56,697 nucleotides of DNA from an archaeon (GCA_043817815.1 JBDRGM010000024.1:1-56697), one strand, 5' to 3'; shown: positions 1 to 49,817, numbered from the stretch's first letter. A program made the numbers and translations. The notes: a model not told the origin generated them from the letters alone.

Positions 1-387
1 ACTTGGGTAGATTCCCCCAAAAATTTTAGGAACAGGAATATCTTTAATCGCATTCGCAAGTTCTAATCCTTGGTCATAAGTCATTTCTAAAATAGAAAAT
101 CCAATCAACCCAGGATGATAATCCCAAACAGCTTTTCTAAAATCTTCTTTAAGTTTTTCAGGACTCATCTTTATCCTCTTAACACCGTATTTTTCTAAAT
201 CAACTTTGATAACTTGCCCAGAATCTTCACGATAAAAATCTCCGGTCTCCTTACCTGTATCATAAAAAGTAGTATCATAAAGTTTCACCTCATGCCCTGC
301 TGCTTTAAGATGACTAGAAAGAACAGAAACCCCAACAGGAATTAAACTATCCATTCTATCGTTTGGGTAAACAAGCATAACTCTCAT
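1..387 (-). CDS. Partial B12-binding-domain radical SAM protein (N-terminal 129 aa only; the rest lies beyond the left window edge)
   Basis: Own translation of the minus strand from the ATG at 387 gives MRVMLVYPNDRMDSLIPVGVSVLSSHLKAAGHEVKLYDTTFYDTGKETG..., open to position 1. The N-terminal architecture matches the seven complete B12-type radical SAM ORFs in the window. CxxxCxxC is not visible because of truncation. Not in the supplied ORF track. Confidence 0.5.
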   Translation of the reverse strand, partial: MRVMLVYPNDRMDSLIPVGVSVLSSHLKAAGHEVKLYDTTFYDTGKETGDFYREDSGQVIKVDLEKYGVKRIKMSPEKLKEDFRKAVWDYHPGLIGFSILEMTYDQGLELANAIKDIPVPKIFGGIYPS

Positions 388-433
388 GATAAAATTGTAA
401 TCTCACTCTCTTTTAAAGATTATCAAAGTAAAC

Positions 434-1528
434 TCAACATATCCTCTTCAAAATCTCTCCCAACCCTTCCTCAGTCAACACTCTTGGATTATTCTCTAAT
501 CTCTCGGGATTATTAAATGCATTTTCAATTACAAATTCTGCGTCAACACCCAATTTTGATAATCTTGTCTCTAAATCAATTCCCTCAATCAAACTATTAA
601 TTATTTCCGAAGCTTCTTCAACACTTCCCACACCAATAATCTCAACTAATTCATCAATTGTTTTCTTAACATGCCCTGCACCTCTTTTATCATTACAATC
701 TTCTTGAGTTACCTTTGAATTATATTTTAACATTTCTCCTAAAGTCAAACCAACAGCATGTCCGTGAGGAACATCAAGATAAGATGTCATTGGATAAGCA
801 AGTGCATGACAAGCAGTTGTTTTTGAGATATTAATTGCTTTGCCCGCCAGATTAGACGCCAGCATCATCTTTTCTTTTGCGTTTTTATCCTCGCTGTTAA
901 CAGCTCTTTCTAAGTTTTCAAATACTAATCTAACTGATTCTTCTGCAAATCTTTTTGATTCATTTGTTGAATGAATTGACCAGTAAGATTCAATTGCCTG
1001 ACTCAAAGCATCCATACCATTAGAAGCTGCAATTTTTTTAGGAAGATTATAAACAAATTGTGGGTCGCAAATTGAATAATTTGGAAGAGTAATCTCCGGC
1101 TCTCCTTTAGATTGTTTTTCTTTTTCAATATAATAAACAATAAAATAAGTTGCTTCACTTCCTGAACCTGCTGTTGTTGGAATTGCAACCAAGGGAATTT
1201 TCTCACCAGTCTGCTGAAAATCAAAAAGCTTAATCGCTTTTGCAACATCAATTGCACTTCCACCACCAATACCCATAATACAATCATAATCTCTTTCATT
1301 GAATATTCCAAATCCCTTTTCTATTTCTTCTATTTTTGGATTAGGAGAAAAATCACAAAATCTTTCATAATCAACATCTTTTAAATTTTCTTCTATCCCT
1401 CTTTTTGCTCCACAAGTTTCATAAGAATTCCTTCCAGTAACAAGAAAAACATTTTTAGCATTTTCTCGTTCTAAAATATCTTTTAGATTCTTAATACTTC
1501 CGAAGCCGAAATGTTCTTGTTGAGTCAT
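434..1528 (-). CDS. Iron-containing (group III) alcohol dehydrogenase; by context phosphonoacetaldehyde reductase-like (FomC/PhpC type)
   Basis: 364 aa. Carries the GGGSAIDVAKAIK motif and the His-rich metal region CHALAYPMTSYLDVPHGHAVG typical of the Fe-ADH family. Its ATG overlaps the stop of the upstream Ppd-fusion gene (ATGA at 1525-1528). The substrate assignment is contextual inference. Confidence 0.75.
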   Translation of the reverse strand: MTQQEHFGFGSIKNLKDILERENAKNVFLVTGRNSYETCGAKRGIEENLKDVDYERFCDFSPNPKIEEIEKGFGIFNERDYDCIMGIGGGSAIDVAKAIKLFDFQQTGEKIPLVAIPTTAGSGSEATYFIVYYIEKEKQSKGEPEITLPNYSICDPQFVYNLPKKIAASNGMDALSQAIESYWSIHSTNESKRFAEESVRLVFENLERAVNSEDKNAKEKMMLASNLAGKAINISKTTACHALAYPMTSYLDVPHGHAVGLTLGEMLKYNSKVTQEDCNDKRGAGHVKKTIDELVEIIGVGSVEEASEIINSLIEGIDLETRLSKLGVDAEFVIENAFNNPERLENNPRVLTEEGLGEILKRIC

Positions 1529-4017
1529 TTTAATAAATTACTTGAGTATTCCACAAGTTCGTCCCATCCATTAACTTTTTTAATATTGGAGAGTACTTCA
1601 TTTTCACTTCCTCCAAAAAGCAAACAATTTACTTCCACTTGCTCATTAGGCATATGCCTAACATCATCATCAACAAATAAACAAGCATTATGGTATTTCG
1701 CAATACCCACCTTTTTTGAACCTGCAATTGGGTTGACATTTGCATATAGGGGGTCTTGTACAGAATAAATTCCTTTAAAACAATTGGATATATTATATTG
1801 CCTGCACCATTCTCTTAGGTTTTCTGTGTGGTCTTCTCTTCTCTGCGATACAAGATATAAATCCGCTATTTTCGACAAATTAAAGATTCCATTTAGTGCT
1901 CCTTCTTTTGGAGAAATTTGCAATGTGCCTTCCCTAGAATAAACATAAAAGCCCATTTGATCGTAAACTTTTTCTCCAATCATAGGAACAAGTTCTGGTT
2001 TGCTACATTGATAGGGTTTTAAATTCTCTAGAAATCTTCTGTCTTCTTGGAAATTTTCTTTGAGCCATTGAATTTTTTTTGCTCCAGTATCTAAAATAAC
2101 ATCATCCCCATCCAATAAAACTACTGGTTTGATTGTCCCAAAAGACCTCATAAACATTTCTTTATTTTCTTGAGGAGTAGAAGTTGGTCTTCCAAGGTCT
2201 TTTCTCGCACCCTTATTAACTTTAACAACAATCATATTAGGTCCTTCAAAATATTTCATTCCTTTTATTGAATTCACCAAATCTTGTTTCTTTTCAACTG
2301 TTTTAACATTATTATATCCGCAAGCTCTTGCAACTTCCCCAAAATCAACATTACTTGAATTTGTTGGCTGCCCCCCTGTTGAATCATAGGAACTATTATC
2401 AAAAATTATATGCGTAAAATTTTTTGGTTTGTAATTTCCTATTGTAGATAATGCTCCCATCTGCATCAGAACTGCTCCGTCTCCATCAAAACAATAAACT
2501 TTTTTATCTGGCTTTTGCAATGCTATTTCTGCAGCAATTGAAGCAGAACAACCCATGCTACCAACAGTCAAAAAATCTTTTGGAGTTTCTCCCCGATTAA
2601 TTCTTAGTTCAAATAATTCTCTTGAGGTTTTTCCAGTAGTGGATATAACTACCTCATTCCCTTGAAGATTGTCAATAACAGTTTTAATTGCATTTTCTCT
2701 TGACATTTCATAAGCGGTTCTAAAAATATTTCTTGGATTATATTCTTCAAAAGTTTTTTTTTTAATAATTATTGCAGATGCATAGTTATTTTGTTCTGCA
2801 GTTTCCTTAGCACGACTTATAACCTCTCTTGCTTCTTCAATATTACCTGGCAAGATTTCATAAGGAATTTCCAATGTCTTAAGCTGCGACTCCATAATTC
2901 TTCCCATCATTTTATGTTGTGGTTCATCTGGCTTTTCAGGTTCTCCTCTCCAACCAATCATCAAAACCATTGGAATAGCATAGACTTCTTTTGATGCTAA
3001 AGATGTTAAGGGGTTTACTATTTTTCCAAGTCCTGAATTCTGCATGTAAACAACACCTGTTTTTCCTGTTGAAAGATGATATCCTGTTGCATGAGCAACA
3101 GCTTCGCATTCATTACAAGCAACTCTGTTTATTAAGCCATTTCCATCTCCTAAAAATTTCATCCAATCTTTAAAAGTAGAATCAGGAACACCTGAAAAAA
3201 AAGTTAAATCATTTTCCTTAAATGCATTTGCTAACTCATGACAAGAAATTATAGCTTCTTTTTTGGGTTTTAAATATTCTTTTGCCTCTTCTAAATCTTC
3301 TGGATGATCTATCTCTGCGCATTCTCTTTTGGATAAAATAGAGTTGATGGTGTTTCCTTCTTCTATCAATCTCCGAAGAAGAAAAGAAGGTGAAGGAAAT
3401 TTAGAAATTTCTCCAGATTCAATTAAATTTTTTATTCTCCCAATAAATTCATTACTCCCTGTTTTTGAAAATTTTAAAATCCCAACAGTCTCTCCACTAG
3501 TCTCTTCAGGACCTAATTCTTTTGAAATTTTTTTAATAATGCCTCTTTCAATTAGAACTTTTGTTGAGCCTTTTTCAATTCTTTCTCCATGATAACTTTC
3601 GTAAGATTCTTCTATTCCATATTGAATTTTTTTAAAATTATCAACAACAATACAGAAATCATTATTATCCTGAAGGAGATTTTTGATAACTTCCTCTTCA
3701 ATATAGACATCACCCATGAGAAGAATAAACGGTGATTCTAATTCTTCTCTTGCACAATATAAACTTTCTAAAACTCCCGTTTCACTATATCTTGGATTTA
3801 AATAAAATTTTAAATTAAAATCTTTTGTGGCTTCTATAATCTTCTCTTTTTTGTAACCTACAACAACACTGATATCATTGATTCCATTTTTTTTCAAAAC
3901 TTCAACTTGATTTCTGATTATTGATTTCCCATTTATTTCTAAAAGACATTTTGGGTTATCTTTTGTCAATTCCCCCATTCTTGATCCAATTCCTGCAGAG
4001 AGTATTATCGCCTTCAT
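1525..4017 (-). CDS. Three-domain fusion: LicC/PntC-type nucleotidyltransferase + phosphonopyruvate decarboxylase (ThDP) + HAD-like phosphatase domain
   Basis: 830 aa. aa 1 to about 250: MKAIILSAGIGSRMGELTKDNPKCLLEING (NTP-transferase G-rich loop). aa about 255-625: FFSGVPDSTFKDW ... CFDGDGAVLMQMG ... IIFDNSSYDSTGGQ (Ppd-like with a ThDP GDG..N motif). aa about 635-830: VVLLDGDDVILDTG and ACLFVDDDVRH (HAD motifs I and IV). Confidence 0.8.
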   Translation of the reverse strand: MKAIILSAGIGSRMGELTKDNPKCLLEINGKSIIRNQVEVLKKNGINDISVVVGYKKEKIIEATKDFNLKFYLNPRYSETGVLESLYCAREELESPFILLMGDVYIEEEVIKNLLQDNNDFCIVVDNFKKIQYGIEESYESYHGERIEKGSTKVLIERGIIKKISKELGPEETSGETVGILKFSKTGSNEFIGRIKNLIESGEISKFPSPSFLLRRLIEEGNTINSILSKRECAEIDHPEDLEEAKEYLKPKKEAIISCHELANAFKENDLTFFSGVPDSTFKDWMKFLGDGNGLINRVACNECEAVAHATGYHLSTGKTGVVYMQNSGLGKIVNPLTSLASKEVYAIPMVLMIGWRGEPEKPDEPQHKMMGRIMESQLKTLEIPYEILPGNIEEAREVISRAKETAEQNNYASAIIIKKKTFEEYNPRNIFRTAYEMSRENAIKTVIDNLQGNEVVISTTGKTSRELFELRINRGETPKDFLTVGSMGCSASIAAEIALQKPDKKVYCFDGDGAVLMQMGALSTIGNYKPKNFTHIIFDNSSYDSTGGQPTNSSNVDFGEVARACGYNNVKTVEKKQDLVNSIKGMKYFEGPNMIVVKVNKGARKDLGRPTSTPQENKEMFMRSFGTIKPVVLLDGDDVILDTGAKKIQWLKENFQEDRRFLENLKPYQCSKPELVPMIGEKVYDQMGFYVYSREGTLQISPKEGALNGIFNLSKIADLYLVSQRREDHTENLREWCRQYNISNCFKGIYSVQDPLYANVNPIAGSKKVGIAKYHNACLFVDDDVRHMPNEQVEVNCLLFGGSENEVLSNIKKVNGWDELVEYSSNLLK

Positions 4018-5045
4018 TTTTTTCTTAACACTGGAAAAGTCTCCAAGATATTTTTATAATTTCCCATTACTATCCCAGAACCTTTTTTAATTAATTCTGG
4101 AATTTTTTCTTTGGGAATAAAAGGGGCGGGGCTTGAGCCAGCGATTCTGTATAATATTGTTGCTCCCGCATATTTAACCATTCTTCTTTCAATCCCTTCC
4201 AATCCAAGAGAAGTTATTTCATCCAGATATCCCTTGGCAATAGATTCAATTGCAGATTCTGTTATATTGTTATTTCCATTTAATAATGCAAATAAAAGAT
4301 AATGCCCTGTAGCAAGACCAATATCATAAGCAGGATCACCTATTCCTGAAGCAGTTTCAAAATCAACTATTCCAATACCTGCATTTGGTCTTTGAAAAAT
4401 ATTTTTAGGACAGCAATCAGCATTAATAAGGACATTATATTTATGTCTTGTATTAGCACTATCATAAAGCCTTCGCAATTCTCCCAACACTTTTTCATCT
4501 TTAACTTTTATTCCTGTTGTTCTTGCATTAAGCATGAGTTCCCAATTTTCTCTATCTTCCTTTTTCTTCCTAATATTATTTCTTTTTCCATATGTATGTT
4601 TGTGGGAAATTCCTAAAAACAATCCGATATTTCCAGCAACATCTTTCTTAAAATCCCCTTTTAAGAGGGCTTCTTGAAGTAGAACTCCCCCATCTCCTTT
4701 AACATCAGAAGTAATTAGGATATTGTTTAGAGAATCATAAGAAAAGACTTTCGGTATTCTAATCTCTTGAGGCATAATATTTTCAAGAGAGAGAAGAGCA
4801 TTCTTTTCAGATTCAATTCTCTGTGGAGGAAGAGATTGCAAATCATTTCCCACTTTTTCAGGATATTTTACTTGTTCGAGTGCTTGTTTAAAATAAACAT
4901 CTCCTTTATCTGTTCCTACCCGATATACAAAATTTAAAAGTCCTATATCAATAAACTCTGTTTCTTTTACTTCTGCATCTAGCAAATCTTTGCATTTATT
5001 AACAAAATATCTCTCTCTAAAATCTGGGTCTCTTAATTCTCTCAT
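4014..5045 (-). CDS. APH/choline-kinase/methylthioribose-kinase-fold small-molecule kinase
   Basis: 343 aa. Catalytic-loop-like INADCCPKNIF and metal-binding IGIVDFETAS (DFE equivalent of DFG). N-terminal FIDIGLLNFVYRV resembles the MTR/choline kinase nucleotide loop. Start and stop overlap neighbours (ATGA at 4014-4017). Substrate unknown. Confidence 0.6.
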   Translation of the reverse strand: MRELRDPDFRERYFVNKCKDLLDAEVKETEFIDIGLLNFVYRVGTDKGDVYFKQALEQVKYPEKVGNDLQSLPPQRIESEKNALLSLENIMPQEIRIPKVFSYDSLNNILITSDVKGDGGVLLQEALLKGDFKKDVAGNIGLFLGISHKHTYGKRNNIRKKKEDRENWELMLNARTTGIKVKDEKVLGELRRLYDSANTRHKYNVLINADCCPKNIFQRPNAGIGIVDFETASGIGDPAYDIGLATGHYLLFALLNGNNNITESAIESIAKGYLDEITSLGLEGIERRMVKYAGATILYRIAGSSPAPFIPKEKIPELIKKGSGIVMGNYKNILETFPVLRKK

Positions 5046-5054
5046 CTTAAGTTT

Positions 5055-6422
5055 TTATCTCCCTCCATGAATCAATTCTAAAATTTCTTTAATAGGCATG
5101 CAATCCCCCTCACATTCATGAGCTCTTCCATGAAGTAGTATTCCCTCAGCTGTCTTTTTCATTGCAGGATATGCACTTCTAAGAAGATGATTTGCATAAA
5201 TCACCATGTTCACCCCGACATCAATTAATTCTTCTTCTTTAATATGACTGTATGCAGAAGGAACCGCCACTAAAGGAACTTTGTTTTCAAATTTAGAATA
5301 CTCTTTGCAAAATTCAAAAATTTCTTTGCAATCCTTTTTTTTGCTGTGAATCATTATTGCATCTGCACCTGCTTTAATATATGCTTGTGCCCGAATCAAA
5401 GCATCATAAATCCCTTTGCCTAAAATCAAACTTTCAATTCTTGCTATAATCATGAAATCTTGTTCTAATTGTGCCCTTTTTCCATTAGAAATTTTTTCTG
5501 CAAATCTTGAAACCTCTTCTTGCACCTGCTCAACTTCAGTTCCAAATAAAGAATTTTTTTTCAGCCCGGTTTTATCTTCGATTATAACTGCAGATACTCC
5601 CAATCTTTCTAAGGTTCTAACCATAAATGTAAAATGTTCAATTTCTCCACCATTGTCTCCATCTAATATAATTGGTTTTGTTGTTGAATCTAAAACCTGT
5701 GTTATAGTATTAATTCTTGAAGTTAAATCAACAATTCCTGTATCTGGCTTACCTTTAGATACTGAATCAGTAAGACTACTTATCCAGACTCCATCAAATT
5801 CTTTTTTTGAATGGTCTTTTTTAACAACTGTTTTTTCAGCTATTAATGCAGTCAACCCATTATGAACCTCAAGAATCCTAATCATTGGTTTAAATTCAAA
5901 TAGTCTTCTTAATCTTTTCATTCTGACCTCTGAAGTTATCCCTATCTCTTTCATTCCTTCTTGTAATTTTGTTGAAGAAATATTTTTTGTGTAGGGCACT
6001 TCAATCATTTGCCCTCCCCATTCACTCAATGCATCTATCACTCTTTGCCGAATGTTTTGTTGAATACCTGTTCTCCAATCATCTCCGTGGACAACATAAT
6101 CTGGTCTGACTTTTCTCAAAGTTGGAACATAATCAAAATTTTCCTGTGGAACTACTTCCTTCACCCCCTTTATATTTTCCGCAATTATTCTTCTCTGTTC
6201 AAATGGAATCAAAGGAACTCTCTTATAACTTGCAATTGCTTCATCAGTTAGTAAACCAACAACAACATCCCCATATTTAACTGCTTCTCTTATAATATTA
6301 ATATGCCCATGGTGCAATAAATCTGCACATAATCCTACATAAACTTTCTTTCTACGCCCTTCGCTGAAATTGCCAATCTCTTCAGTATTTTCCAGGTTCA
6401 AATCTTTTTTCTCTTGTGTCAT
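5055..6422 (-). CDS. pepM: Bifunctional cytidylyltransferase - phosphoenolpyruvate mutase (Fom1-type fusion)
   Basis: N-terminal half: [23 protein letters not shown] (HxGH cytidylyltransferase motif). C-terminal half: [19 protein letters not shown], i.e. the EDKxxxxxNS signature that separates PEP mutase from other isocitrate-lyase-superfamily members. The track start 6464 is a TTG; the ATG at 6422 (MTQEKKDL...) is preferred. It still overlaps the upstream radical SAM gene by 41 nt. Confidence 0.85.
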
Positions 6423-7800
6423 TTTTATTATACTCTCTATTAAATTTAGCAGCAAGTTCTTCAACTTCTACTGATGTAAAGTCCTTTGTGTTAATATTCC
6501 CTAATTTGAATAACTGCTCATTCCAACCAGCACCCTTTCTCAAATAATCTTTTTTTTCGCATATATTTAACAATTCTGAACCTACTAATGGAGTTGCAGC
6601 AAAAAAACTTGAACTATCAAATCCACAATCACTCACAAAATTATATGTCTCATTCATATTTTCAATTGTTTCTCCAGGTAAACCACAAATAGCAAAAGAA
6701 TGAACCTTAATCCCAATTTCTTGGGCTTTTTTTACAAGGGGTTTCACCTTCGCTAAATCAAGTGGCTTCTTGACAATTTCATTTAAAACTCTTTGATTTC
6801 CACTTTCAACAGCAAATGTTAGCTGATAAAATCCAGCCTCCTTCATTTTTTCTAGCAATTCATTATCTAATGCCCACGCAGCAAGACCTTGCGGAGCACA
6901 CAAATGCAATCCAAAATCTTTAATTGCATCTAGAATTTCCATAGCTCTATTTTTATTTAATGTAAAATTATCGTCTGTAATCTGAATTTCATCTATATTA
7001 TATTTCTCTTTTAGTTCCTTTATTTCATTAATGACACTTTGTGCGCTTCTTCCCCTATAACGATTTCCCCAAAAATTTGTTGTTGTGCAAAAAACACATC
7101 TAGCAGAGCACCCTCTTGAAGTCATAATCTGAGCAATTCTTTTTCCTTTTGGGTATGGATTTTGAGGAGTATTTATCCTAAAATACATTTCCATATTTAA
7201 TAAATGTCTTGCAGGAAAAGACAGACTATTCAAATCCCCAATATACTGCTTTTTCGAATTAATGAATTTAATCCCTTCATATTTTCCAGCCAAGCCATCT
7301 ATTTCTGAAACATCTTTATCATTATTCAGAGCATCAAGTAATTGAGAAGTAGGAAGTTCCCCCTCTCCCAAAACAATAAAATTAACTATATCTAAAAAAT
7401 CTCCTACAGCATAAGTTGGATGTGAACCTCCAACTAATGTGATTATATCTTCATCAACTTCTTTAGTAATTTTTAAAACATGTTTCGCATTTCCCGCTTG
7501 CGAAGAAAATATGCAGGAAACACCAACAACGTCTGGTTTAAATCCATCAATTTTTTTCTTTACTGTTTCATCATCCAACCCATAAGTCACAAATTTCCCA
7601 TCATCACTTTCAACAGCATTATCATACCCCTCATTAGCAATATCTAAAATTTTAACTTCATAACCCTCTCTCTCCAAAAATCCTCCCAAATAAGCAAGAC
7701 CAATTGGTGTTATGCACCTCCTGACATCCTCCTTGAATAATGTATACCTCGGAACCATCAACATTACTTTTTGCACCTTTTTTACACAATCTTTTATCAT
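6382..7800 (-). CDS. B12-binding-domain (class B) radical SAM enzyme, Fom3-like by context
   Basis: 472 aa. N-terminal Rossmann-like B12-type domain (MLMVPRY...[22 protein letters not shown]; VGGSHPT). Radical SAM cluster motif [14 protein letters not shown] (CxxxCxxC). First gene of the phosphonate operon. Confidence 0.85.
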
Positions 7801-39892: not shown

Positions 39893-41062
39893 CTACATCT
39901 CCTCATAATCCTTAACTGTATCATCAATAATCTTCTCCCATCTATACCTTTCTGCATATTTTTTCACATTCTTTTTCTTCCACTTTAAAATTCCTTTAAC
40001 TGCCTTAACAATTTCCTCCGAATTTTTCTTTTTTATTAATAGTCCTTCTTGGTTGTTTTTTATCACAAGAGGCATTCCCGCAACATCTGTAGACACAATA
40101 GGCAAATTTCTTGCCATAGCTTCCATCACTGTTACAGAAGCCCCTTCTTTTGCCGCTGAAGGTAATATAAACGCGTCTGCCGCACTAAAATATGGAAGTT
40201 TTTCCTTATCAAAAATAGGCCCTAAAAATTCAACATTTTTTAGTTCTCTTAATTTAGTTTCTTCTTCATATTTTTCTTGTTCTCCCCACCCAATTATTTT
40301 CAATTCAATATCTGGAAGTTCTTTCATAGCATCTAATAAATATGGAATCCCCTTAAATTTGTTTATCCTTCCCAGATATAAAAGAATTTTTTTGTTCAAG
40401 GGCCATCCAACTTTTTTGCGAGCAAGTTTCTTATCCATATAATCAAAATAATAATCATCAATTCCCATTGTTTGGAATTTTATTTTGGAATTTGGGGCCC
40501 TTTTTGTCAAGTATTCAATTTCAAAAGAACTAAGTGGGTAAAAGATTTTCACATTTTTCAAAACACGATTTTCCCATAATTGACCTAGCAAAAATGCAGG
40601 AAAAAACAATCTGTATTCTTTAATCTCTCTCACAAGTTTTAATGGCCAACTCCCTCCATGATGTTGGGCAATTATATTTTGATTTTTGAAGAGAGTGGAA
40701 ATAAGAAGCCCATGCAGATTATGATATTCATGCAAATGAAAAATTAATTTATAACCTTCTTTTTCACTTTTTTTAACCTCTTTTTTTAATTCTTTTAACA
40801 TAGATATTGAAAAATCAAGCCCATACATTGGGGAGAAAGTTGTAGGAAATTGCCTATATCTAACACCCGATTCATTAAATTCCATATTCTTTTTTATCTT
40901 TTCAGGACACCAACACTCCACTTCAATCTTAGGATAAAATCTCTTAATCTGTTTAGCAGTCAGTGAAAACCAATCTCCCACAATCATCTCTCTAGGTGTT
41001 TTTTGGCATACTGCCCAGACAGCATGTGAAGCATGAGCAATTAATACTGTTTTAATCTTCAT
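39893..41062 (-). CDS. GT4-family (GT-B fold) glycosyltransferase
   Basis: 389 aa. LYLGRINKFKGI, FILPSAAKEGASVTVMEAMARNLPIVSTD (E-x7-E). Start overlaps the stop of the upstream radical SAM gene (41059-41062). Confidence 0.8.
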   Translation of the reverse strand: MKIKTVLIAHASHAVWAVCQKTPREMIVGDWFSLTAKQIKRFYPKIEVECWCPEKIKKNMEFNESGVRYRQFPTTFSPMYGLDFSISMLKELKKEVKKSEKEGYKLIFHLHEYHNLHGLLISTLFKNQNIIAQHHGGSWPLKLVREIKEYRLFFPAFLLGQLWENRVLKNVKIFYPLSSFEIEYLTKRAPNSKIKFQTMGIDDYYFDYMDKKLARKKVGWPLNKKILLYLGRINKFKGIPYLLDAMKELPDIELKIIGWGEQEKYEEETKLRELKNVEFLGPIFDKEKLPYFSAADAFILPSAAKEGASVTVMEAMARNLPIVSTDVAGMPLVIKNNQEGLLIKKKNSEEIVKAVKGILKWKKKNVKKYAERYRWEKIIDDTVKDYEEM

Positions 41063-42707: not shown

Positions 42708-43841
42708 ATGCCAACAATGCCCTTCTCGCATAAGATTAAGCTTTTATCTCATTTTGTATTTGAAAGACGATTCAGAGAAATCTATAATATGTTTTGGGTT
42801 TATCCCTTGTGGTGGAATCGAAGATGGTCCTCATTCATATTAAACAAGTTCTTACCTAAGATTGGAATTGATTTATTCCCGCCTTTTTTAGAAATAGAAC
42901 CAACAACTGTTTGTAATTTGAAATGTGTTTGTTGTGAGCATACATATTGGAAAGAGCCTTCAAAAAACATGACTTTTGAACAATTTAAAAAAATCTTTGA
43001 TGATTTTGGAAAACCAAAATGGCTTGGCTTAACAGGAATTGGTTCATCTTATCTCAATAAAGATTATCACAAAATGCTCGCATATGCAAAAAGCAAAGGA
43101 ACACTCATTGAAGTATTTGACCATTTCACCCATTTTGAAGATGATTCCAAAATAAAAGAACTAATAGAGATTGGCCCTGATTTTCAATTTGTCTCAACTT
43201 ATGGAGCAACAAAAAAATCTTTTGAAAAAGTATGCCAAGGAAGTGACTATGAATTAATTGAAAAGAATATCAAAAGATTTGTAGAGCTAAAAAAACAAAT
43301 GAAAAAAAGATTTCCAATATTGAGTTTTCACTACATTATCACAAGCGAATCAAAAGACGAACTACTAAAATTCTTAGACTTTGTGCATTCACTTAATACA
43401 GAAATTGGAGAAATACTTGTAACACCCATGATTCATAGTTTTAAAGAAGCAGAAAAATATGCTGTTGATATTGACAAAGATTATGTTAATAGAATTAGAG
43501 AAAAGGCAGAAAAATATAAAATACCTATTACAATAAATATGAATTCTAAAAAAGAAACAGAGTCTCTTGAAAGAAAACCTCCTATGAGCAACTGCAAAGA
43601 ACTTATCATGCCTTTTATTTTTGTAACAGGTCATGTGACTCCTTGTTGTGGTCAAAACGAAGCAAATCAGCGAGAGTGGCAAAAAAAGATGTCATTAGGA
43701 AATGCTTTAGAAAAGCCCTTTAGAGAAATATGGTATTCACCAAAATACATTATGATGAGGAAGATGATTAGAAGAAATGAATGCCCAGAGGAGTGTAGGT
43801 TGTGTCCTGCTTATGAGAAGAGGGTTGATATAAAAAAATAA
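42708..43841 (+). CDS. Radical SAM enzyme with SPASM-type C-terminal domain
   Basis: 377 aa. EPTTVCNLKCVCCEHT (CxxxCxxC). C-terminal MSNCKELIMPFIFVTGHVTPCCGQ ... CPEECRLCPAY. N-terminal start uncertain (several in-frame Met). Confidence 0.75.
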   Translation: MPTMPFSHKIKLLSHFVFERRFREIYNMFWVYPLWWNRRWSSFILNKFLPKIGIDLFPPFLEIEPTTVCNLKCVCCEHTYWKEPSKNMTFEQFKKIFDDFGKPKWLGLTGIGSSYLNKDYHKMLAYAKSKGTLIEVFDHFTHFEDDSKIKELIEIGPDFQFVSTYGATKKSFEKVCQGSDYELIEKNIKRFVELKKQMKKRFPILSFHYIITSESKDELLKFLDFVHSLNTEIGEILVTPMIHSFKEAEKYAVDIDKDYVNRIREKAEKYKIPITINMNSKKETESLERKPPMSNCKELIMPFIFVTGHVTPCCGQNEANQREWQKKMSLGNALEKPFREIWYSPKYIMMRKMIRRNECPEECRLCPAYEKRVDIKK

Positions 43842-43842: not shown

Positions 43843-44823
43843 ATGAAAACAGATTACATATATGCAATAGAAAATATTTTACCCTCAAAGAAATTAAGAA
43901 GAGTTATACTTTCTGTCACAAATCTATGCAATTCAAGATGTAAAACTTGTTCTCTTTGGAAAAATAAAGATAGAGTTGAACCGAGTTTTGAAGATTTAGA
44001 AAAACTTGCAAAATCAAGATTATTCAAAGAGGTAAGATTTCTTGTGTTGACAGGTGGAGAGCCTTTTTTAAGAAAAGATTTAGATGAGGTTGTAAACATG
44101 TTCAAGAAACAAAATCCCAAACTTCATATAACTATTTTATCCAATGCACTTCTTCCAGAAACAATTATTAAAAAGGTAATGAATATGCCAAGAGATGTAT
44201 TGATAACAATGTCATTTAATGGAAAAGAAGAGACTCATGATGAGACAAGAGGCGTAAAAGGAAACTTCAAAAAATTGCTAAAGACAATTGAAGGGTTAAA
44301 AAACATCAATCAGAATATAAACTTAATTTTCACAGTAACAAAAGAAAATCATGACCAGTTATTATGGGCATGGGATTTCGCAAAAAAACAAAATCTGAAT
44401 ATTTTGCTTAATCCAGAAATGGATTATGGAAGACTTGAAACAGAAAAAGGAAGGGGATTAAATGAAACTCAAAAACAAAAAGTTCTCGAGCAATTAAAAA
44501 AAATTTATTCAGAAAGAAAAAGACCCTTTTTCGACGACACTTACCTTCTGTTTTTCAAAAAAGTTTACAATAATCAGACAGTAACAGATAGATGCTATGC
44601 AGGAACAAATTCAATTTACATAGATTTTACAGGAGACGTTTATCCATGTGAAAACCTTGTTGGAATAATAAAACCTTTTGGGAACATAAATGGTAAAATA
44701 GCAATCCCAAAAAACTATACTAAAAAAATAAAGGAAATGGATTGTTATGAACATTGCTACCTCCTCTGTGAGATGGTTAGGAATTTAAGAAAACACCCTT
44801 TGAAGACACTGGGGGAACGGTGA
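43843..44823 (+). CDS. Radical SAM enzyme with SPASM/twitch-like C-terminus
   Basis: 326 aa. SVTNLCNSRCKTCSLW (CxxxCxxC), LTGGEPFL. C-terminal DRCYAGTNSIYIDFTGDVYPCEN ... CYEHCYLLC. Starts 1 nt after the preceding radical SAM gene. Confidence 0.75.
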   Translation: MKTDYIYAIENILPSKKLRRVILSVTNLCNSRCKTCSLWKNKDRVEPSFEDLEKLAKSRLFKEVRFLVLTGGEPFLRKDLDEVVNMFKKQNPKLHITILSNALLPETIIKKVMNMPRDVLITMSFNGKEETHDETRGVKGNFKKLLKTIEGLKNINQNINLIFTVTKENHDQLLWAWDFAKKQNLNILLNPEMDYGRLETEKGRGLNETQKQKVLEQLKKIYSERKRPFFDDTYLLFFKKVYNNQTVTDRCYAGTNSIYIDFTGDVYPCENLVGIIKPFGNINGKIAIPKNYTKKIKEMDCYEHCYLLCEMVRNLRKHPLKTLGER

Positions 44824-44863: not shown

Positions 44864-45679
44864 ATGTTCATGCAAATCCAGACAGAACAGGACATGATCA
44901 ATTTCTGTAACGAAGTAAATACTAGTGGAAAACCTTTTGATATTAAAATTTCAGATGATTTAACTCCTTCTGAAGTTGAGAACTGGGAAAAATTGAGAGA
45001 ACAATATGATAATTTTCCTGGAGCACAATTAAAACAAGGAATAAAAGAAATAACTCTTTCCAATTCTTCTCCTGCTGGAAAGGCTTTGGAATTAAACACA
45101 ATCCCTTATCTTCACCCTTTTGCTAAAACCCCAGAGGGCAAACCTGAACTAAAATGCTCAATGACTGGAGTTTTTGTTAATTGTGTTGATACTTCAAGAT
45201 ATTTAGTACTACTCCAAGTAAGAGGAAAAAATATTGAATCAGAATATTCCTTCCAAAATGCTGCTTCTGGTTTTGGAAAGTTTAGAGTGCCTTTACTTGA
45301 AACTGCAAGAACAGAATTATTTGAAGAAGCAGGAATTGAATATGCTCGATTTTTATTTGATGGAAGAGCAGTTGATTTTCTTCCATTTAAGGCAGGAGAT
45401 TATTACCCGCCATTAGCAAGTTTTACGTGCGAAAATGTTCTTTCAGATTTTCCTTATTTTGAAAACTTAGAAAGTATATTAGAATTTAGAGAAAAAGTTA
45501 TAATGGGCATCAAAGAAGGAGCAATTAAAGAGAAGGAAGGCCATCATTTTACAGTTCCTTATAGAAGTCTTGAAAAAATTGCAGGAGAATTAAATAACCA
45601 AGGAAGATTCTACGGTCCTGTCTATGATTCAATTATTAATTCTATGAGAGCTTTAAAAAATAACAAAATGTTAGGTTAA
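44864..45679 (+). CDS. Nudix-like protein (degenerate Nudix box)
   Basis: 271 aa. SGFGKFRVPLLETARTELFEEAGIEY matches G-x5-x-x7-(T)E-L-x-EE-x-G-I. An ATG two codons downstream (44870) is an alternative start. Confidence 0.45.
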   Translation: MFMQIQTEQDMINFCNEVNTSGKPFDIKISDDLTPSEVENWEKLREQYDNFPGAQLKQGIKEITLSNSSPAGKALELNTIPYLHPFAKTPEGKPELKCSMTGVFVNCVDTSRYLVLLQVRGKNIESEYSFQNAASGFGKFRVPLLETARTELFEEAGIEYARFLFDGRAVDFLPFKAGDYYPPLASFTCENVLSDFPYFENLESILEFREKVIMGIKEGAIKEKEGHHFTVPYRSLEKIAGELNNQGRFYGPVYDSIINSMRALKNNKMLG

Positions 45680-47605
45680 TTATTCCTTATACATTTTCCA
45701 AGCATACATATAAGCCTGAACCATTTTATCAGTAAAGGCTTTCCAGCTTAAGTTATCTTTAACAAACATTGCACCTTTCTTTGCTTTCTCCTTATATTCC
45801 TTCTTGTGCTTATGAATATCTAATAAGAATTTTGAATAATCGCTTGTAACAATTCCCAATTCTTTTTTCTTCATCAATGATGCGGTTTCAATTTCTAGAG
45901 ATACAATCACAGGAAGTTCTGCACACAATGCTTCAAGAGGAACAAGTATTCCCCCCTGTTTTTTAGTTGGAAAAAGCCCAACATCTGCTGCTTTATACAA
46001 ATCTCTTAATTCATTTCTTGTCTTAAGATAACCAGCAAATAAAACATGCTTTTCCAATTTCTTCTCTTTCACATACTTTTCGAGTTTTTCCTTATATTCA
46101 GAATCTTCTCTTCCTGTAAAAATAAGTAAGATATTAGGAATCTTGTCTTTTACTTTTTCAACTGCTTTTATGCTCTCAAACTGATTTTTGACATCACATA
46201 AAATTCCAGACTGAACAACAACAAATTTATTTTTCAAATTGAAACTCTTAATAGCCTTCTCAGCATTTCCTCCTGAAAAAAAATCATAATCTATTCCAAA
46301 ATCAATTAACTTAGCATTTCTTCCATATCTCTCTCTTGCTCTAATCTGATTTAATTCTTCTGCAACAGTAATTACATCCATACTTCTTCTGATGATAAAT
46401 CTATCTACCCATACCCTTATTTTGTGCAGTGTCTTATAAAAAAATCCTGCATCTGGTTTACTAAATAAACTTGGAGGTAGATTCATAAACCACACAGCAG
46501 GTTTTTTCTTTGGCCATAAAGTCCAAGTAACAGGAAAATCATGAAAATTAATTACATCATAATTATCTTTTATTTCACTAAGTTTTTTTCTAAAGGCTTT
46601 TATTGCATCAAGAATATCCAGCATATTCTTATAACCAGGAGGATTCAAATCTATATTGTTTTTTGGAATTATAACTTCTGTATTCAACAACTGAGTTTCA
46701 ACTTCCTTAGAACTTGATAAAGCAAGAATATCATTTTTTATCCCTCTTCTTGTAAGTTCATTTGCTAATTCCACAATTAACAACTCTCCTCCGCCATAAT
46801 ACTTCATTTGATTATGAACAATCAATACTTTCGGATTACTCTCCCTAATCATTTCTTTTGCATAATGTAAATCCTCATAGGTGTTTATGTTAATATAACC
46901 TTCTGCAATAGTATACACTTTTACTTTCTTTCCATCATCAATTGCACACTGAATCATATCTACCATCTCTTTCTGATTTCGATACATGTTAATAGGAGTT
47001 TTTTCAATATACTCCAAAATTTCATTTCTAAAAATACAATGGCCTGTCCCCTTTAAGTTATTAATCGGAAACCTTGGTTTCTCTACTAATCTAAAAGTCC
47101 TACCTAAATCATTTATCATTACAGAATACGTTTTTTTAATGCTTGATTTATCCTCCTCACGCACAACTCCACAAACTGCAAATAACTCTTCTCTCTTAAA
47201 TTTCCTTAGCATCCCTTTCATATCTGGCTTAACCATGACCTCGTCTCCAAGCATCAATATAAAATCACTCTTTCCAATTGCTTCTTTTGCATTCTTAATG
47301 GCATTAACTATCCCCTCTCCTCTTTTTTCGAGTACATAAGTCACCTTAACTTCCTTATATTTCTCACCTATTTTTTTAATAATTTCCTCGGGCTTATAAC
47401 AAAGAACAAGTATTATCTCAGTAACTTCTGCATCTATTGCCCTGTCAAGATTATTTTCTAATAATGTTTTATCATAAATTTCAAGCATTGCCTTGTTCTT
47501 CTCCTTAGTCATTTCCTCTAATCTAATCCCTTTTCCACCTGCAATTACAACGGCCTTCATACCTCTCAATCCCCCACTTTCATTTAAAGCATTTATATAA
47601 CTCAA
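45680..47605 (-). CDS. Fusion: sugar-phosphate nucleotidyltransferase + GT4-type glycosyltransferase
   Basis: 641 aa. N-terminus MKAVVIAGGKGIRLEEMTKEKNKAMLEI (an ATG at 47560 may be the true start). C-terminal half LIVHNQMKYYGGGE ... FTGRED ... LFPTKKQGGILVPLEALCAELPVIVS (GT-B donor domain). Its stop codon directly abuts the stop of the convergent gene 44864..45679. Confidence 0.8.
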   Translation of the reverse strand: MSYINALNESGGLRGMKAVVIAGGKGIRLEEMTKEKNKAMLEIYDKTLLENNLDRAIDAEVTEIILVLCYKPEEIIKKIGEKYKEVKVTYVLEKRGEGIVNAIKNAKEAIGKSDFILMLGDEVMVKPDMKGMLRKFKREELFAVCGVVREEDKSSIKKTYSVMINDLGRTFRLVEKPRFPINNLKGTGHCIFRNEILEYIEKTPINMYRNQKEMVDMIQCAIDDGKKVKVYTIAEGYININTYEDLHYAKEMIRESNPKVLIVHNQMKYYGGGELLIVELANELTRRGIKNDILALSSSKEVETQLLNTEVIIPKNNIDLNPPGYKNMLDILDAIKAFRKKLSEIKDNYDVINFHDFPVTWTLWPKKKPAVWFMNLPPSLFSKPDAGFFYKTLHKIRVWVDRFIIRRSMDVITVAEELNQIRARERYGRNAKLIDFGIDYDFFSGGNAEKAIKSFNLKNKFVVVQSGILCDVKNQFESIKAVEKVKDKIPNILLIFTGREDSEYKEKLEKYVKEKKLEKHVLFAGYLKTRNELRDLYKAADVGLFPTKKQGGILVPLEALCAELPVIVSLEIETASLMKKKELGIVTSDYSKFLLDIHKHKKEYKEKAKKGAMFVKDNLSWKAFTDKMVQAYMYAWKMYKE

Positions 47606-47674
47606 ATATACTTTTCTAAAATATATGTCGCACTTCTACATAATACTTAAAAGTAAATTCATTTTACAATTTTA

Positions 47675-48319
47675 ATGAAAAAGATAATTGGAATTGGTGG
47701 AGCAGTAATAAAAACAGGTATTGGAGAGGATTTAAAGAAAAACATAGACCAGATAGAAATGATAATTTATAATGGCGGGGCAATATTTCATGATTTTCAA
47801 TTAGCTCTTGAAGGATACACTTCAGTTCCAATAAGCGAATTAGTAAACACTCACGAAAGAATAAAGTTTTCAAGTTTATATCTCTTAGAATGGTTAAAAG
47901 GAAATAAAGAACCTCCAGAAGGCTCTCTTGCGAAATTTTGTAAAGACCGGGGAATTCCTGTTCTTTTATTTACTGCCTTAGGATGCGATTACTGGCAGTT
48001 ATTTTCTGATGACTGGGGAGTTTTAGGAAGAAAGTCCCAAAGAGATTTCGAGATTCTAAAAAAAAGGTTTAATGAAAAACCATTCCATTACATTAACATG
48101 GGTTCTGCAGTTATACATCCAGAAGTATTCCTAAAAGCAATTTCAGGAGTCAAGCATAAATTCAGAGCAGACGTTGTGGATTTTTTAGACATGTACCGCC
48201 CAAGAACAAGAGTAGCAGTCTACGGCAAATATTTTAAAATGACTTTCAAAGAATATATGGACAACGAATTCAATAAAAATGAAAATAACTTTAATCTCCC
48301 CCGCGACATTTCCATCTGA
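47675..48319 (+). CDS. Hypothetical protein; weak resemblance to the deoxyhypusine-synthase-like Rossmann fold
   Basis: 214 aa. IIGIGGAVIKTGIGEDLKKNIDQIEMIIYNGGAIFHDF, RGIPVLLFTALGCDYW and YINMGSAVIHPEVFLKA line up by eye with the DHS blocks GxxSNLISSGIRE...VTTAGGxEED, IPVFxPALTDGS and ILGGGVxKHH. Much shorter than a canonical DHS. The 3-prime end overlaps the next gene by 41 nt. Confidence 0.25.
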   Translation: MKKIIGIGGAVIKTGIGEDLKKNIDQIEMIIYNGGAIFHDFQLALEGYTSVPISELVNTHERIKFSSLYLLEWLKGNKEPPEGSLAKFCKDRGIPVLLFTALGCDYWQLFSDDWGVLGRKSQRDFEILKKRFNEKPFHYINMGSAVIHPEVFLKAISGVKHKFRADVVDFLDMYRPRTRVAVYGKYFKMTFKEYMDNEFNKNENNFNLPRDISI

Positions 48320-49817
48320 CCAGGGAATCAGGACAATCTCTGCAGTTTTAAAAAAAGCAGGGCATAATGTGAAAACAGTTTTTATGTCATTAAGCGAAGA
48401 CTATTCAAGGAATTATACAAGACAAGAGCTCAACAAACTCTTGATGATGTGTAAAGACTCTCAGTTGATAGGAATAAATTCTTTTGCATCAACTTCAAAG
48501 AGAGCAGCAAGAATAATCTCATTTTTAAAATCACGCGTAAGTGCTCCAATAGTATATGGAGGAGTACACGCAACAATTTCACCAGAGGATTGCATAAGAT
48601 ATTCAGATATTGTTTGTGTTGGTGAAGGCGAAGGAGCAATTCTAGATTTAGTAAAAGCAATTGAAGAAAACAAACCAATCAACAAAATAAAAAACTTATG
48701 GATTAAAGAAGATAATCAAACAGTCAAAAATCCAGTAAGACCAGTAATAGACAATCTAGATAAATTACCAATCCCAGACTTTGACATAAAGGATCATTAC
48801 ATCTTAGAAAGCGGGGGAATAAGAAAATTTATTGAACAAGATTTAGCAGGACAAATATTCTTCTTAACAGGAAGAGGATGTCCTTATGGATGTGATTATT
48901 GTAGTAACTCTTTTTTCAACAAGCTCTATGAAGGAAAAAGAAAGCAAATAATGAGGTGGAACTCTCCAGAATACATAATAAATGGAATCTTAGAATTAAA
49001 GAAGAAATTTCCAAATTCTCTAGGTTATTTTGATATTCGCGACGACACTTTCTCATTAAGACCTTTGGAAGACATTAAAAAATTCTGTAAATTATACAGA
49101 GAAAAGGTAAACATGCGTTTCAAATGTTTAGGAGACCCGCGGACAATTTCAGATGAAAAAATAAAACTTCTTGTTGATGCAGGTTGCACAGATATTATAA
49201 TTGGTATTCAAGGAGCAGAAAGAGCAAACAAAGAAATTTATCACAGAAATCAGACAGACACGCATGTCATAAACGCTGCAAATATCCTCAACAAATACAA
49301 AGATAAACTAGCTACCATGTACGATGTTATAACATGTAATCCTTATGAAAAACCAGAGGACATCATAAACATGATAAGACTTCTTCAAAAACTTCCAAAA
49401 CCATTTTACCTCTCAGTAAACAACTTAGTTTTCTTTCCAGGCTCACAACTTTACAGAAAAGCAAAATCAGATGGAACAATCAAAACAGAAAAAGACACAG
49501 CAGCAGAGTTAAACTACTGGGACAGAAGCAAACACATCCGCCTCAAAAGAAAAAACATATACCTCAATCTAATCCTCAATATGATGCGTGGACCTGCAAC
49601 AGAATCCAGATTTGGATTAATGCCAAACACACTAATCAATTATTTATTAGAACCAGAAAGAGTAAGAAAAAATTTGAGTAACTCAAATTCTTCGTTAATT
49701 GTTTTAAGACTCGTCGCTGTTCAGGATTTAATCAGAGAAAGAATAATGAAACCAACTTTCAGAAGCATGCCTATCTCATTTAAAATTTGGTATGATAAAA
49801 TGAGGTATAGGGCTTAA
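48279..49817 (+). CDS. B12-binding-domain (class B) radical SAM enzyme
   Basis: 512 aa. MKITLISPATF...IRTISAVLKKAGHNVKTVF, YGGVHAT. TGRGCPYGCDYCSN (CxxxCxxC). Confidence 0.85.
   Translation: MKITLISPATFPSDQGIRTISAVLKKAGHNVKTVFMSLSEDYSRNYTRQELNKLLMMCKDSQLIGINSFASTSKRAARIISFLKSRVSAPIVYGGVHATISPEDCIRYSDIVCVGEGEGAILDLVKAIEENKPINKIKNLWIKEDNQTVKNPVRPVIDNLDKLPIPDFDIKDHYILESGGIRKFIEQDLAGQIFFLTGRGCPYGCDYCSNSFFNKLYEGKRKQIMRWNSPEYIINGILELKKKFPNSLGYFDIRDDTFSLRPLEDIKKFCKLYREKVNMRFKCLGDPRTISDEKIKLLVDAGCTDIIIGIQGAERANKEIYHRNQTDTHVINAANILNKYKDKLATMYDVITCNPYEKPEDIINMIRLLQKLPKPFYLSVNNLVFFPGSQLYRKAKSDGTIKTEKDTAAELNYWDRSKHIRLKRKNIYLNLILNMMRGPATESRFGLMPNTLINYLLEPERVRKNLSNSNSSLIVLRLVAVQDLIRERIMKPTFRSMPISFKIWYDKMRYRA

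Follow-up and report, generated by a model that had tools for sequence, protein, structure and literature searches.

A radical SAM-rich gene island in a DPANN-type archaeon that probably encodes a surface glycan or phosphonoglycan

The archaeal contig JBDRGM010000024.1 (GCA_043817815.1), analysed over all 56,697 nucleotides of positions 1-56697 (hereafter the window), carries an island of biosynthetic genes in which radical S-adenosylmethionine (SAM) enzymes are strongly concentrated. A first-pass annotation had called 13 complete open reading frames (ORFs) with a CxxxCxxC cluster motif, and one truncated relative, between positions 1 and 49817. All 13 were recovered: a regular expression for the motif matches exactly these ORFs and zero other ORFs of at least 100 aa, and each exceeds the gathering score of Pfam Radical_SAM PF04055 (34 to 105 bits vs 29.5). 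Seven of them (6382-7800, 11445-12854, 13646-16360, 30243-31721, 38417-39844, 41059-42597 and 48279-49817) belong to class B, with the cobalamin (B12)-binding domain PF02310 above its cutoff in 7/7; for the 904-aa protein of 13646-16360 the match lies in the middle. The B12 domain also claimed for the truncated ORF at 1-387 (minus strand) scores 29 bits in Pfam, under the 32.1 cutoff, but all of its 129 residues align, at 70% identity, with the N-terminal part of the 526-530-aa B12-radical SAM protein encoded after the iron-containing alcohol dehydrogenase gene in the related loci L003 and L005, and the ORF is therefore regarded as the N-terminal part of a genuine 14th radical SAM gene, of class B, cut by the contig end. 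Radical SAM genes thus account for 14 of the 42 ORFs and 36% of the bases of 1-49817, a density with a binomial P of ~7e-14 assuming a 2% genomic background. The other six ORFs (25611-26660, 32202-33218, 34152-35264, 35285-36202, 42708-43841 and 43843-44823) had been described as SPASM/twitch-like enzymes with an N-terminal (T/R)xxCNxxCxxC motif. SPASM PF13186 is above cutoff in five, whereas 35285-36202 has a Cys-rich C-terminus and no Pfam SPASM match, and the motif as written does not hold for 32202-33218, which reads CGMNCPHC. Loss of the SAM-binding GGE motif, which would have counted against these assignments, is confined among these six to 42708-43841, where it is degenerate (TGIGSS); five of the six non-B12 enzymes retain it (GEGEP, GGGEP or SGGEP type), and the class B ORFs have an acidic DDNF-like stretch at roughly the place where it falls in the others.

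All-against-all BLASTP comparison, proposed earlier as a way of telling expansion from recruitment, gave identities of at most 32% within class B and at most 26% within the other radical SAM enzymes. A recent paralogue expansion was rejected on these values, by which the set is one of old, divergent paralogues gathered from distinct lineages. AlphaFold (AF2) models of two representatives, 6382-7800 (pLDDT 93.5) and 25611-26660 (pLDDT 90.8), both gave full-length Foldseek matches to solved radical SAM enzymes at probability 1.00, and in these two the models support the partial TIM-barrel radical SAM fold.

The G+C content (GC) is low across the window (0.29-0.35), and tRNA and Rfam scans of the window gave no match. 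The closest named relatives of two different window proteins are Nanoarchaeota, Nanoarchaeia and Pacearchaeota metagenome-assembled genomes (MAGs) at 57-73% identity; the host is, judged by these relatives, a DPANN-type (Nanoarchaeota/Pacearchaeota-like) archaeon. The concentration of radical SAM genes, for which the first-pass annotation named no equal among characterised glycan or phosphonate clusters, is not unique, related Nanoarchaeota and Pacearchaeota loci, themselves uncharacterised, being equally or more dense. Of the 17 genes that occupy 21 kb in L012, a Pacearchaeota-type locus, 8 are radical SAM genes, and the gene through which this locus was found occurs in 42 assembly-collection blocks. 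In L015, 15 kb with 7 such genes are directly followed by genes for a flippase, SecDF and an RNA polymerase subunit, and L003 fits five class B genes into 21 kb. Orthologs of eight window genes, at 59-71% identity, are present in L012 or L015, with one at 49% for a ninth, the methyltransferase at 10619. The repertoire varies between genomes, L012 carrying at 1-3171 a HemN-like radical SAM gene and a 672-aa radical SAM gene with no window counterpart. By these comparisons the window is the largest example seen, yet it is one case of a recurrent, conserved lineage trait. Full-text searches of a literature library found no paper describing such DPANN radical SAM islands, and surveys of the neighbourhoods of phosphoenolpyruvate (PEP) mutase (Ppm) mention radical SAM enzymes only beside Campylobacter ppm-ppd (PMC8942020).

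The left end of the island (1-7800) is a minus-strand operon with overlapping start and stop codons, and it is here that the suggestion of phosphonate synthesis was borne out, both PEP mutase and phosphonopyruvate decarboxylase (Ppd) scoring above their NCBIfam equivalog cutoffs. The gene at 5055-6464 encodes a Fom1-type bifunctional cytidylyltransferase and PEP mutase (TIGR02320, 398 bits vs a cutoff of 319.6) that contains the EDKxxxxxNS motif, at residue 296, and that, in its N-terminal cytidylyltransferase domain, has 58% identity with the Fom1 domain of PDB 5X3D (E 7e-56). The gene at 1525-4017 encodes a nucleotidyltransferase (Pfam NTP_transf_3, at the N-terminus) fused to Ppd (TIGR03297, 443 bits vs 312.5) and to a C-terminal domain of about 200 aa. 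The C-terminal 206 aa (1525-2145, minus strand) give a weak match to an NT5C/HAD-type nucleotidase (20.9 bits vs a cutoff of 24.8), and this extra domain is not found in the 375-aa Ppd of relatives. An iron-containing alcohol dehydrogenase at 434-1528 (Pfam Fe-ADH and ADH_Fe_C) is likely a phosphonoacetaldehyde reductase of the PhpC/FomC type; it scores 152 bits against NCBIfam Phn_Fe-ADH, under the cutoff, and is kept after Ppd in L003, L005, L007 and L017. Between the two fusion genes lies a small-molecule kinase of the APH (choline/aminoglycoside kinase-like) family (4014-5045; PF01636, E 8e-11), which is missing from the sister contig L007.

Also in the operon is the class B enzyme at 6382-7800 (B12-binding and Radical_SAM domains), a candidate methylase of CMP-2-hydroxyethylphosphonate with a Fom3-like role. 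A radical SAM gene of this type always lies beside the Fom1-type cytidylyltransferase in the phosphonate loci compared (L003, L005, L007 and L017). Similarity at the level of 44% identity was rejected as a predictor of this role, given that a Vulcanimicrobiota homologue of that identity does not lie beside phosphonate genes. The order radical SAM, cytidylyltransferase-Ppm, Ppd, Fe-alcohol dehydrogenase, radical SAM is kept in the Nanoarchaeota loci L003 and L005, and L007 keeps it without the trailing radical SAM gene. The locus L017 of an Omnitrophota bacterium has the same phosphonate genes in a rearranged order, and in it a Fom1-like cytidylyltransferase (58% identical) lies beside the radical SAM gene even though Ppm is fused to a different transferase. 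The L017 cassette (MAG GCA_030698625.1, 2272-12012, GC 0.52) comprises a class B radical SAM gene, the Fom1-like cytidylyltransferase (an uncalled gene at 9608-10009), Ppm, Ppd, the Fe-alcohol dehydrogenase, a further class B radical SAM gene and a GT2 glycosyltransferase, with a 661-aa radical SAM protein and an 8605-residue giant gene in the vicinity; the phosphonate cassette thus spans the boundary between archaea and bacteria.

The later enzymes of known phosphonate pathways were also sought. In Pfam scans of the 48 window ORFs, no cupin, HppE-like or DUF402-type family was found that would indicate an HppE/Fom4 epoxidase or a FomD hydrolase, a result that was read by eye from the match lists and covers the ORFs with a Pfam match; since neither enzyme was found, this is not a fosfomycin cluster. 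Likewise, no domain of an MpnS/HEPD-type oxygenase was found by Pfam and NCBIfam in the window, the unmatched ORFs lying far from the phosphonate operon. Next to the operon, on the plus strand, 8165-9598 encodes a 'sulfatase' of the alkaline phosphatase superfamily (Pfam Sulfatase) in which the C/S-x-P/A-x-R formylglycine motif is absent. A 69% ortholog occupies the same place beside the phosphonate genes in L007, and the protein is put forward as a candidate phosphonyl transferase or esterase. That a SPASM enzyme serves as maturase of this neighbouring sulfatase was considered and rejected, as the motif to be matured is missing; no anSME family is among the listed NCBIfam matches of the six non-B12 radical SAM enzymes.

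The block from 10 to 17.4 kb contains the protein that speaks most directly for radical chemistry on sugars. The 13646-16360 gene (minus strand) encodes a fusion, by Pfam, of a sugar-1-phosphate nucleotidyltransferase, a class B radical SAM enzyme and an NAD-dependent short-chain dehydrogenase/reductase (SDR) of the epimerase/decarboxylase-like kind, its PDB matches being Man-1-P guanylyltransferase for the nucleotidyltransferase part and UDP-GlcA decarboxylase for the SDR part. The motifs GEGKR, CPFSCIFC, GSSGFLG and YGLTK are intact. The three-domain architecture was found in one other protein in an index of 5.8 billion sequences, and the two-domain form, radical SAM with SDR, in four, one of which lies in an amino-sugar cluster. 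A search with the fusion against species-representative genome contigs returned no close relative, the one match being an unrelated nucleotidyltransferase (27%) from a Lachnospiraceae MAG. The fusion has the best PhpK/BcpD (TIGR04479) score of the set, 147 bits, under the subfamily cutoff of 600. Given that a class B enzyme is here fused to a sugar-1-phosphate nucleotidyltransferase and an SDR, sugar substrates are very likely, and the protein gives the strongest evidence for class B action on sugars, probably on NDP-sugars. Around it lie two class I SAM methyltransferases (10108-10617, plus strand, and 10619-11443, minus strand; Methyltransf_11 and related Pfam families), a Pfam-assigned class B radical SAM gene (11445-12854, minus strand; 77% ortholog in L007, no NCBIfam cutoff reached), a polysaccharide deacetylase family protein (12858-13649, minus strand; PF01522; 76% ortholog in L007) and a LegB-like NDP-sugar 4,6-dehydratase (16422-17411, minus strand; TIGR04180, 446.8 bits, just under the cutoff of 475). 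L007 keeps the block at 66-77% identity but has no match to the two methyltransferases.

In the middle of the island, SPASM-type enzymes are associated with thiamine-diphosphate enzymes. The SPASM/twitch-type enzyme at 25611-26660 (minus strand, Pfam) belongs to a large Nanoarchaeota/Pacearchaeota family with members 57-71% identical, in which four C-terminal Cys are invariant, a number that fits one auxiliary cluster (the full SPASM motif, for two auxiliary clusters, has seven Cys). Its best PDB sequence match is BlsE, and the top matches of its model are DesII (TMq 0.75, the best), SuiB, SkfB and BlsE (TMt 0.72); DesII and BlsE act on nucleotide sugars. Adjoining it on the same strand are a split transketolase-like enzyme, recognised by Pfam and NCBIfam, with its N subunit at 28353-29183 and its Pyr and C domains at 26738-28363 fused to a methyltransferase. 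In other genomes, proteins of the 25611 family carry as a fusion either a transketolase Pyr domain (P0271) or a methyltransferase (P0280, among others). The N-terminal domains of P0271 and P0280 each match one half of 26738-28363, at 38% and 47% identity respectively; since the neighbouring gene is matched in this way, the three activities (SPASM radical SAM, split transketolase-like and methyltransferase) are taken as one functional unit. Proteins P0271, P0280, P0292 and P0309 all join a SPASM radical SAM enzyme to domains that in the window (25611-29183) belong to the neighbouring gene. A further thiamine-diphosphate enzyme, at 21100-22259 (minus strand; Transket_pyr and E1_dh), is a minimal two-subunit form with an E1 beta-like chain of 176 aa and an E1 alpha-like chain of 209 aa, a very small pair made up of PP and Pyr domains only; in L015 (11040-12211) its 65% and 71% orthologs adjoin an ortholog of the 25611 family.

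The remaining genes of this stretch are a NUDIX-like ORF (17522-18010, a weak match, with a NUDIX gene present in the corresponding module of L015), an HAD phosphatase (18175-18783), a GT4 glycosyltransferase (18866-19930, plus strand, Pfam), a Gtf3-like glycosyltransferase (19919-21112, minus strand, Pfam, the L007 ortholog of which carries Gtf3_C) and, at 22331-24441, two ORFs of 413 aa (minus strand) and 256 aa (plus strand) that have no Pfam or NCBIfam match and have 32% homologs beside a SPASM gene in L012. An SDR with a 115-aa N-terminal extension (24458-25594, minus strand; adh_short_C2) precedes the 25611 gene. Beyond the transketolase-like genes, a DUF362 protein with an insert of a two-[4Fe-4S] ferredoxin (29217-30248, plus strand; PF04015 and Fer4 families) may be an electron donor, and is followed by a class B gene (30243-31721, minus strand, Pfam) with a 57% ortholog in the sugar cluster L010 of a different organism; a metagenome-contig scan with this gene gave two loci with 57-59% orthologs, no synteny and an organism GC of 0.42. 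The only large gap of the island (480 bp) follows, with class B and SPASM genes on either side, and holds an 88-aa ORF, winged-helix-like as judged by its translation (31857-32123, plus strand; sequence containing ISKKLNINKTHISRALKELEGKKMLL), that may be a local regulator. It is succeeded by a SPASM gene (32202-33218, minus strand, Pfam), an SDR (33219-34163, minus strand, Pfam), a further SPASM gene (34152-35264, plus strand, Pfam; 59% ortholog in L012) and the enzyme with the Cys-rich tail (35285-36202, minus strand; C226, C228, C244, C272, C278 and C281), which has 62-64% orthologs in L007 and L015.

Further to the right (37384-42597), glycosyltransferase and class B genes alternate, and similar pairs occur in relatives. 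A GT9-like glycosyltransferase (37384-38394, minus strand; PF01075), whose 60% ortholog lies beside a B12-radical SAM ortholog in L015, is paired with the class B gene at 38417-39844 (minus strand; 64% ortholog in L015), for which the best families, HpnJ and Sden_1168, are both below cutoff (Sden_1168 189 bits, cutoff 575); a GT4 glycosyltransferase (39893-41062, minus strand; 60% ortholog in L015) is paired with the class B gene at 41059-42597 (minus strand, Pfam). Two SPASM genes (42708-43841, with the degenerate GGE, and 43843-44823; both plus strand, Pfam) are followed, after a 271-aa ORF without family match (44864-45679, plus strand), by a Pfam-assigned fusion of a sugar-1-phosphate nucleotidyltransferase with a GT4 glycosyltransferase (45680-47605, minus strand), a GSU2086-like protein (47675-48319, plus strand; NF052581, 71 bits, under the cutoff of 250) and the last class B gene (48279-49817, plus strand, Pfam), the start of which is overlapped by the preceding gene over 41 bases, suggesting coupled translation. 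A 358-aa ORF without family match (36251-37327, minus strand) stands at the left of this block. The island may extend to a GT2 glycosyltransferase gene (51652-52551, plus strand, Pfam) that lies beyond the range first annotated. At this right edge, 49820-51314 encodes a QueC homologue (Pfam QueC, E 1e-45; PADLOC gives only QueC itself and a very weak QatC match) and a small protein that resembles phosphoribosyltransferases; a tblastn search of plasmids with QueC carried no taxonomic information. Further on, 52666-54594 contains an ORF with an NTP_transf_2 domain, then two small opposite-strand ORFs without real family match, one of which has three hydrophobic segments. Searches of the unmatched ORFs with Pfam at a lenient threshold (E up to 5), with NCBIfam and with PADLOC yielded no usable match.

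Taken together, three nucleotidyltransferase domains, a LegB-like 4,6-dehydratase, several SDRs, a deacetylase, at least six glycosyltransferases, two thiamine-diphosphate enzyme pairs and 14 radical SAM genes suggest that the region from 1 to ~52.5 kb is probably a biosynthetic island for a surface glycan or phosphonoglycan with radical tailoring. By analogy with the early fosfomycin enzymes, a phosphonate route up to a methylated CMP-phosphonate is predicted for 1-7800: PEP mutase would convert PEP to phosphonopyruvate, Ppd would convert this to phosphonoacetaldehyde, the Fe-alcohol dehydrogenase would reduce the aldehyde to 2-hydroxyethylphosphonate (HEP) and the cytidylyltransferase domain would form CMP-HEP, which the class B enzyme at 6382-7800 would turn into CMP-2-hydroxypropylphosphonate as in the Fom1/Fom3 pair. 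Fom3 methylates cytidylyl-HEP, and Fom3, MoeK5 and HpnJ group together in sequence networks (PMC9204698). The second flanking class B enzyme, truncated at 1-387, may modify the methylated CMP-phosphonate further. Given that neither an epoxidase nor a hydrolase is present, the CMP-phosphonate would be a donor that decorates a sugar, the transfer being perhaps a task of the motif-less 'sulfatase'. About half of Ppm clusters are thought to yield phosphonoglycans or phosphonolipids, and HEP conjugates are known in exopolysaccharide (PMC8942020).

The other class B enzymes would act on NDP-sugars, in the case of the fusion protein, or on the growing glycan, in the case of those paired with glycosyltransferases, and would most likely C-methylate unactivated carbons. 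The SPASM/twitch enzymes may catalyse oxidation, deamination, decarboxylation or rearrangement of sugar nucleotides in the manner of DesII, BlsE and BtrN, and one of them, with the transketolase-like enzyme and the methyltransferase, probably builds a branched-chain sugar; electrons may be provided by the DUF362-ferredoxin. The finished glycan would be exported and attached by the products of genes outside the window. We infer the glycan product, the methylation chemistry and the use of cobalamin. The earlier proposal of a heavily radical-tailored glycan or phosphonoglycan therefore stands as far as phosphonate synthesis, nucleotide-sugar enzymes, glycosyltransferases and the fusion of a class B enzyme to sugar-nucleotide domains are concerned, whereas poly-C-methylation and real use of cobalamin by the class B enzymes are guesses drawn by analogy.

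Several observations weigh against this interpretation. None of the 13 complete radical SAM ORFs reaches an NCBIfam equivalog cutoff, so every reaction assigned to them is an analogy. For 6382-7800, the model aligns lengthwise with TsrM, AprD4, CysS, TokK, MgmA and OxsB, with the highest TM-score to AprD4 (TMq 0.74), a diol dehydratase and not a methylase, which shares the fold of the class B methylases. The best curated family of the same enzyme is Sden_1168 (NF038361; 338 bits, under the equivalog cutoff of 575), a P-methyltransferase family whose natural substrate is unknown (PMC9204698). Six ORFs in 1-49817 have no Pfam family at E <=0.01. Finally, a lipid-carrier priming transferase, a flippase, a polymerase and an oligosaccharyltransferase are all missing from the window, and the island codes for no multi-pass membrane protein, so that the genes for export and attachment must lie elsewhere; in relatives, a Wzx-like flippase and PMT-type transferases are found alongside the islands.

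Among known systems, the island resembles the early fosfomycin pathway of Streptomyces (Fom1, Fom2, FomC and Fom3) in its bifunctional cytidylyltransferase/PEP mutase, with the identity in the cytidylyltransferase domain given above, in its Ppd, Fe-alcohol dehydrogenase and adjacent class B enzyme, and in the implied intermediates HEP, CMP-HEP and methylated CMP-phosphonate. It differs from that pathway in having neither the HppE/Fom4 epoxidase nor the FomD hydrolase, in adding a second class B enzyme, a kinase and an extra nucleotidyltransferase, in the position of the cassette within an archaeal glycan island, and in the best family of its radical SAM enzyme, which is Sden_1168 (below cutoff) and not a curated Fom3 family. 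Ppm clusters for phosphonoglycans or phosphonolipids (HEP/PhpC-type; methylphosphonate of Nitrosopumilus maritimus; HEP-exopolysaccharide of Stackebrandtia) share with it Ppm, Ppd and Fe-alcohol dehydrogenase near nucleotidyltransferases, sulfatase-family and sugar genes, and a product predicted to be bound to the cell surface (PMC8942020, PMC8931226); in contrast to them, the island has no MpnS/HEPD-type oxygenase, its core is flanked by class B enzymes, and its radical SAM count far exceeds that of any neighbourhood in those surveys.

The cobalamin-dependent sugar methylases GenK, GenD1, Fms7 and MoeK5 resemble the class B enzymes in architecture, with an N-terminal B12-binding domain and a radical SAM barrel, a sugar-biosynthesis context and glycosyltransferase pairing; they differ in that one island enzyme is fused to domains that form and modify NDP-sugars, which suggests action at the nucleotide-sugar stage, and in that the host is a reduced-genome archaeon and not an actinomycete antibiotic producer. 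DesII, BlsE and BtrN are among the best sequence and structure matches of the 25611 family and have a partial-SPASM or twitch-like single auxiliary cluster, the family itself keeping four invariant C-terminal Cys, but identity to 25611-26660 is just 16-21% and the fusion links to a transketolase Pyr domain and a methyltransferase have no counterpart there. AviB1 and AviB2 of avilamycin biosynthesis are E1-like/transketolase-like thiamine enzymes of a branched-chain sugar pathway. Like them, the thiamine-diphosphate enzymes of the island are two-subunit enzymes in a sugar cluster and plausibly add a two-carbon branch to a keto-sugar; unlike them, the E1-like pair is minimal (209 + 176 aa) and the transketolase-like pair has a methyltransferase fusion and a radical SAM partner.

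Given that the contig is metagenome-assembled and that the sister contig lacks the region 21.1-35.3 kb, it is possible to regard the concentration of radical SAM genes as an assembly artefact, a chimera of several genomes. This is hardly credible and was rejected: no composition break was found, GC staying within 0.305-0.333 in 8-kb segments and tetranucleotide use correlating at r >=0.978 between each 8-kb segment and the rest of the window; L007, an independent assembly, is syntenic over ~434-21112 and also carries an ortholog of 35285-36202; other DPANN contigs, up to 375 kb long, carry orthologs from both island halves together; and there is little space between the genes, start and stop codons overlapping. 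The region absent from L007 instead indicates an island made of a conserved core and variable cassettes. This layout, which is that of surface-polysaccharide loci, also bears on whether the product is a diffusible natural compound, either a phosphonate antibiotic or an aminoglycoside-like pseudo-oligosaccharide, on which the radical SAM enzymes would act as tailoring enzymes as in fosfomycin, gentamicin or apramycin. The early steps do copy the logic of Fom1, Fom2, FomC and Fom3, AprD4 is among the class B fold matches, and DesII and BlsE, the best matches of the SPASM member, are antibiotic-pathway enzymes. A diffusible product is nevertheless unlikely, since Pfam indicates no HppE/Fom4-type epoxidase, FomD-type hydrolase, exporter or resistance gene, since the genes code for six or more glycosyltransferases along with three nucleotidyltransferase domains, and since the islands of relatives stand beside a Wzx-like flippase and PMT-type transferases.

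Membrane lipids, with phosphonolipid head groups or radical methylation or cross-linking of isoprenoid chains, or both, are about equally improbable as the product. CDP-alcohol phosphatidyltransferase genes adjoin the phosphonate cassette in relatives, many Ppm clusters are assigned to phosphonolipids (PMC8942020), and there are weak NCBIfam matches to ladderane B12-radical SAM, HpnJ/HpnR and Tes; against this, the scores for the lipid families are far under their cutoffs, the window contains no CDP-OH_P_transf gene and no membrane enzyme, and nucleotide-sugar enzymes and glycosyltransferases dominate the gene content. It is less likely still that the SPASM-type enzymes mature peptides or proteins, as ribosomally synthesized and post-translationally modified peptides (RiPPs) or by cross-links in an S-layer or a metalloenzyme, and lie among sugar genes by chance. 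The SPASM domain typically belongs to peptide maturases, the structural matches of 25611-26660 count SuiB and SkfB among the best, and the best NCBIfam family for three of the six non-B12 enzymes is a tungsten-enzyme maturase, well below its cutoff. Yet no precursor-like small ORF is adjacent, the search for a RiPP precursor in the only sizeable gap having found the winged-helix-like ORF instead; the 'sulfatase' without formylglycine motif needs no maturase; and both the fusions of the 25611 family with a methyltransferase or a transketolase domain and the place of DesII and BlsE among the best-superposing structures speak against peptide maturation.

The surface glycan or phosphonoglycan thus remains the probable product, and since islands in which a third of the genes encode radical SAM enzymes are kept at ~60-70% identity, among the few genomes compared, strong selection on unusual cell-surface chemistry is suggested. 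DPANN archaea have lost most biosynthesis. The earlier remark that the cofactor demand of the island is striking for such an organism was apt, given the DPANN-type host and reports that related Woesearchaeota have genomes of ~1 Mb in which cobalamin pathways are seldom complete (PMC8421398). A wider and more tentative reading, held with clearly less than even confidence, is that DPANN archaea of the Nanoarchaeota/Pacearchaeota type, with genomes of ~1 Mb, keep this large and costly pathway, with its cobalamin, Fe-S and thiamine requirements, for a hyper-modified surface phosphonoglycan with C-methylated and branched sugars made by new enzyme types. These would be a class B radical SAM enzyme working directly on an NDP-sugar, in the nucleotidyltransferase/radical SAM/SDR fusion; a SPASM enzyme that forms a single unit together with transketolase-like and methyltransferase partners; and CMP-2-hydroxypropylphosphonate, or a further methylated form, as a glycan donor, with the early fosfomycin pathway serving the cell surface. 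Were this so, the coat could be the basis on which these episymbionts attach to hosts, or escape viruses or hydrolases, and they would rely on corrinoids from outside. The island offers testable enzymology in the rare class B/nucleotide-sugar fusion, in the radical SAM-thiamine-methyltransferase module and in a CMP-phosphonate route that seemingly feeds a glycan and not an antibiotic, and it is relevant to where environmental phosphonates originate and to how far ultra-small archaea depend on cobalamin.

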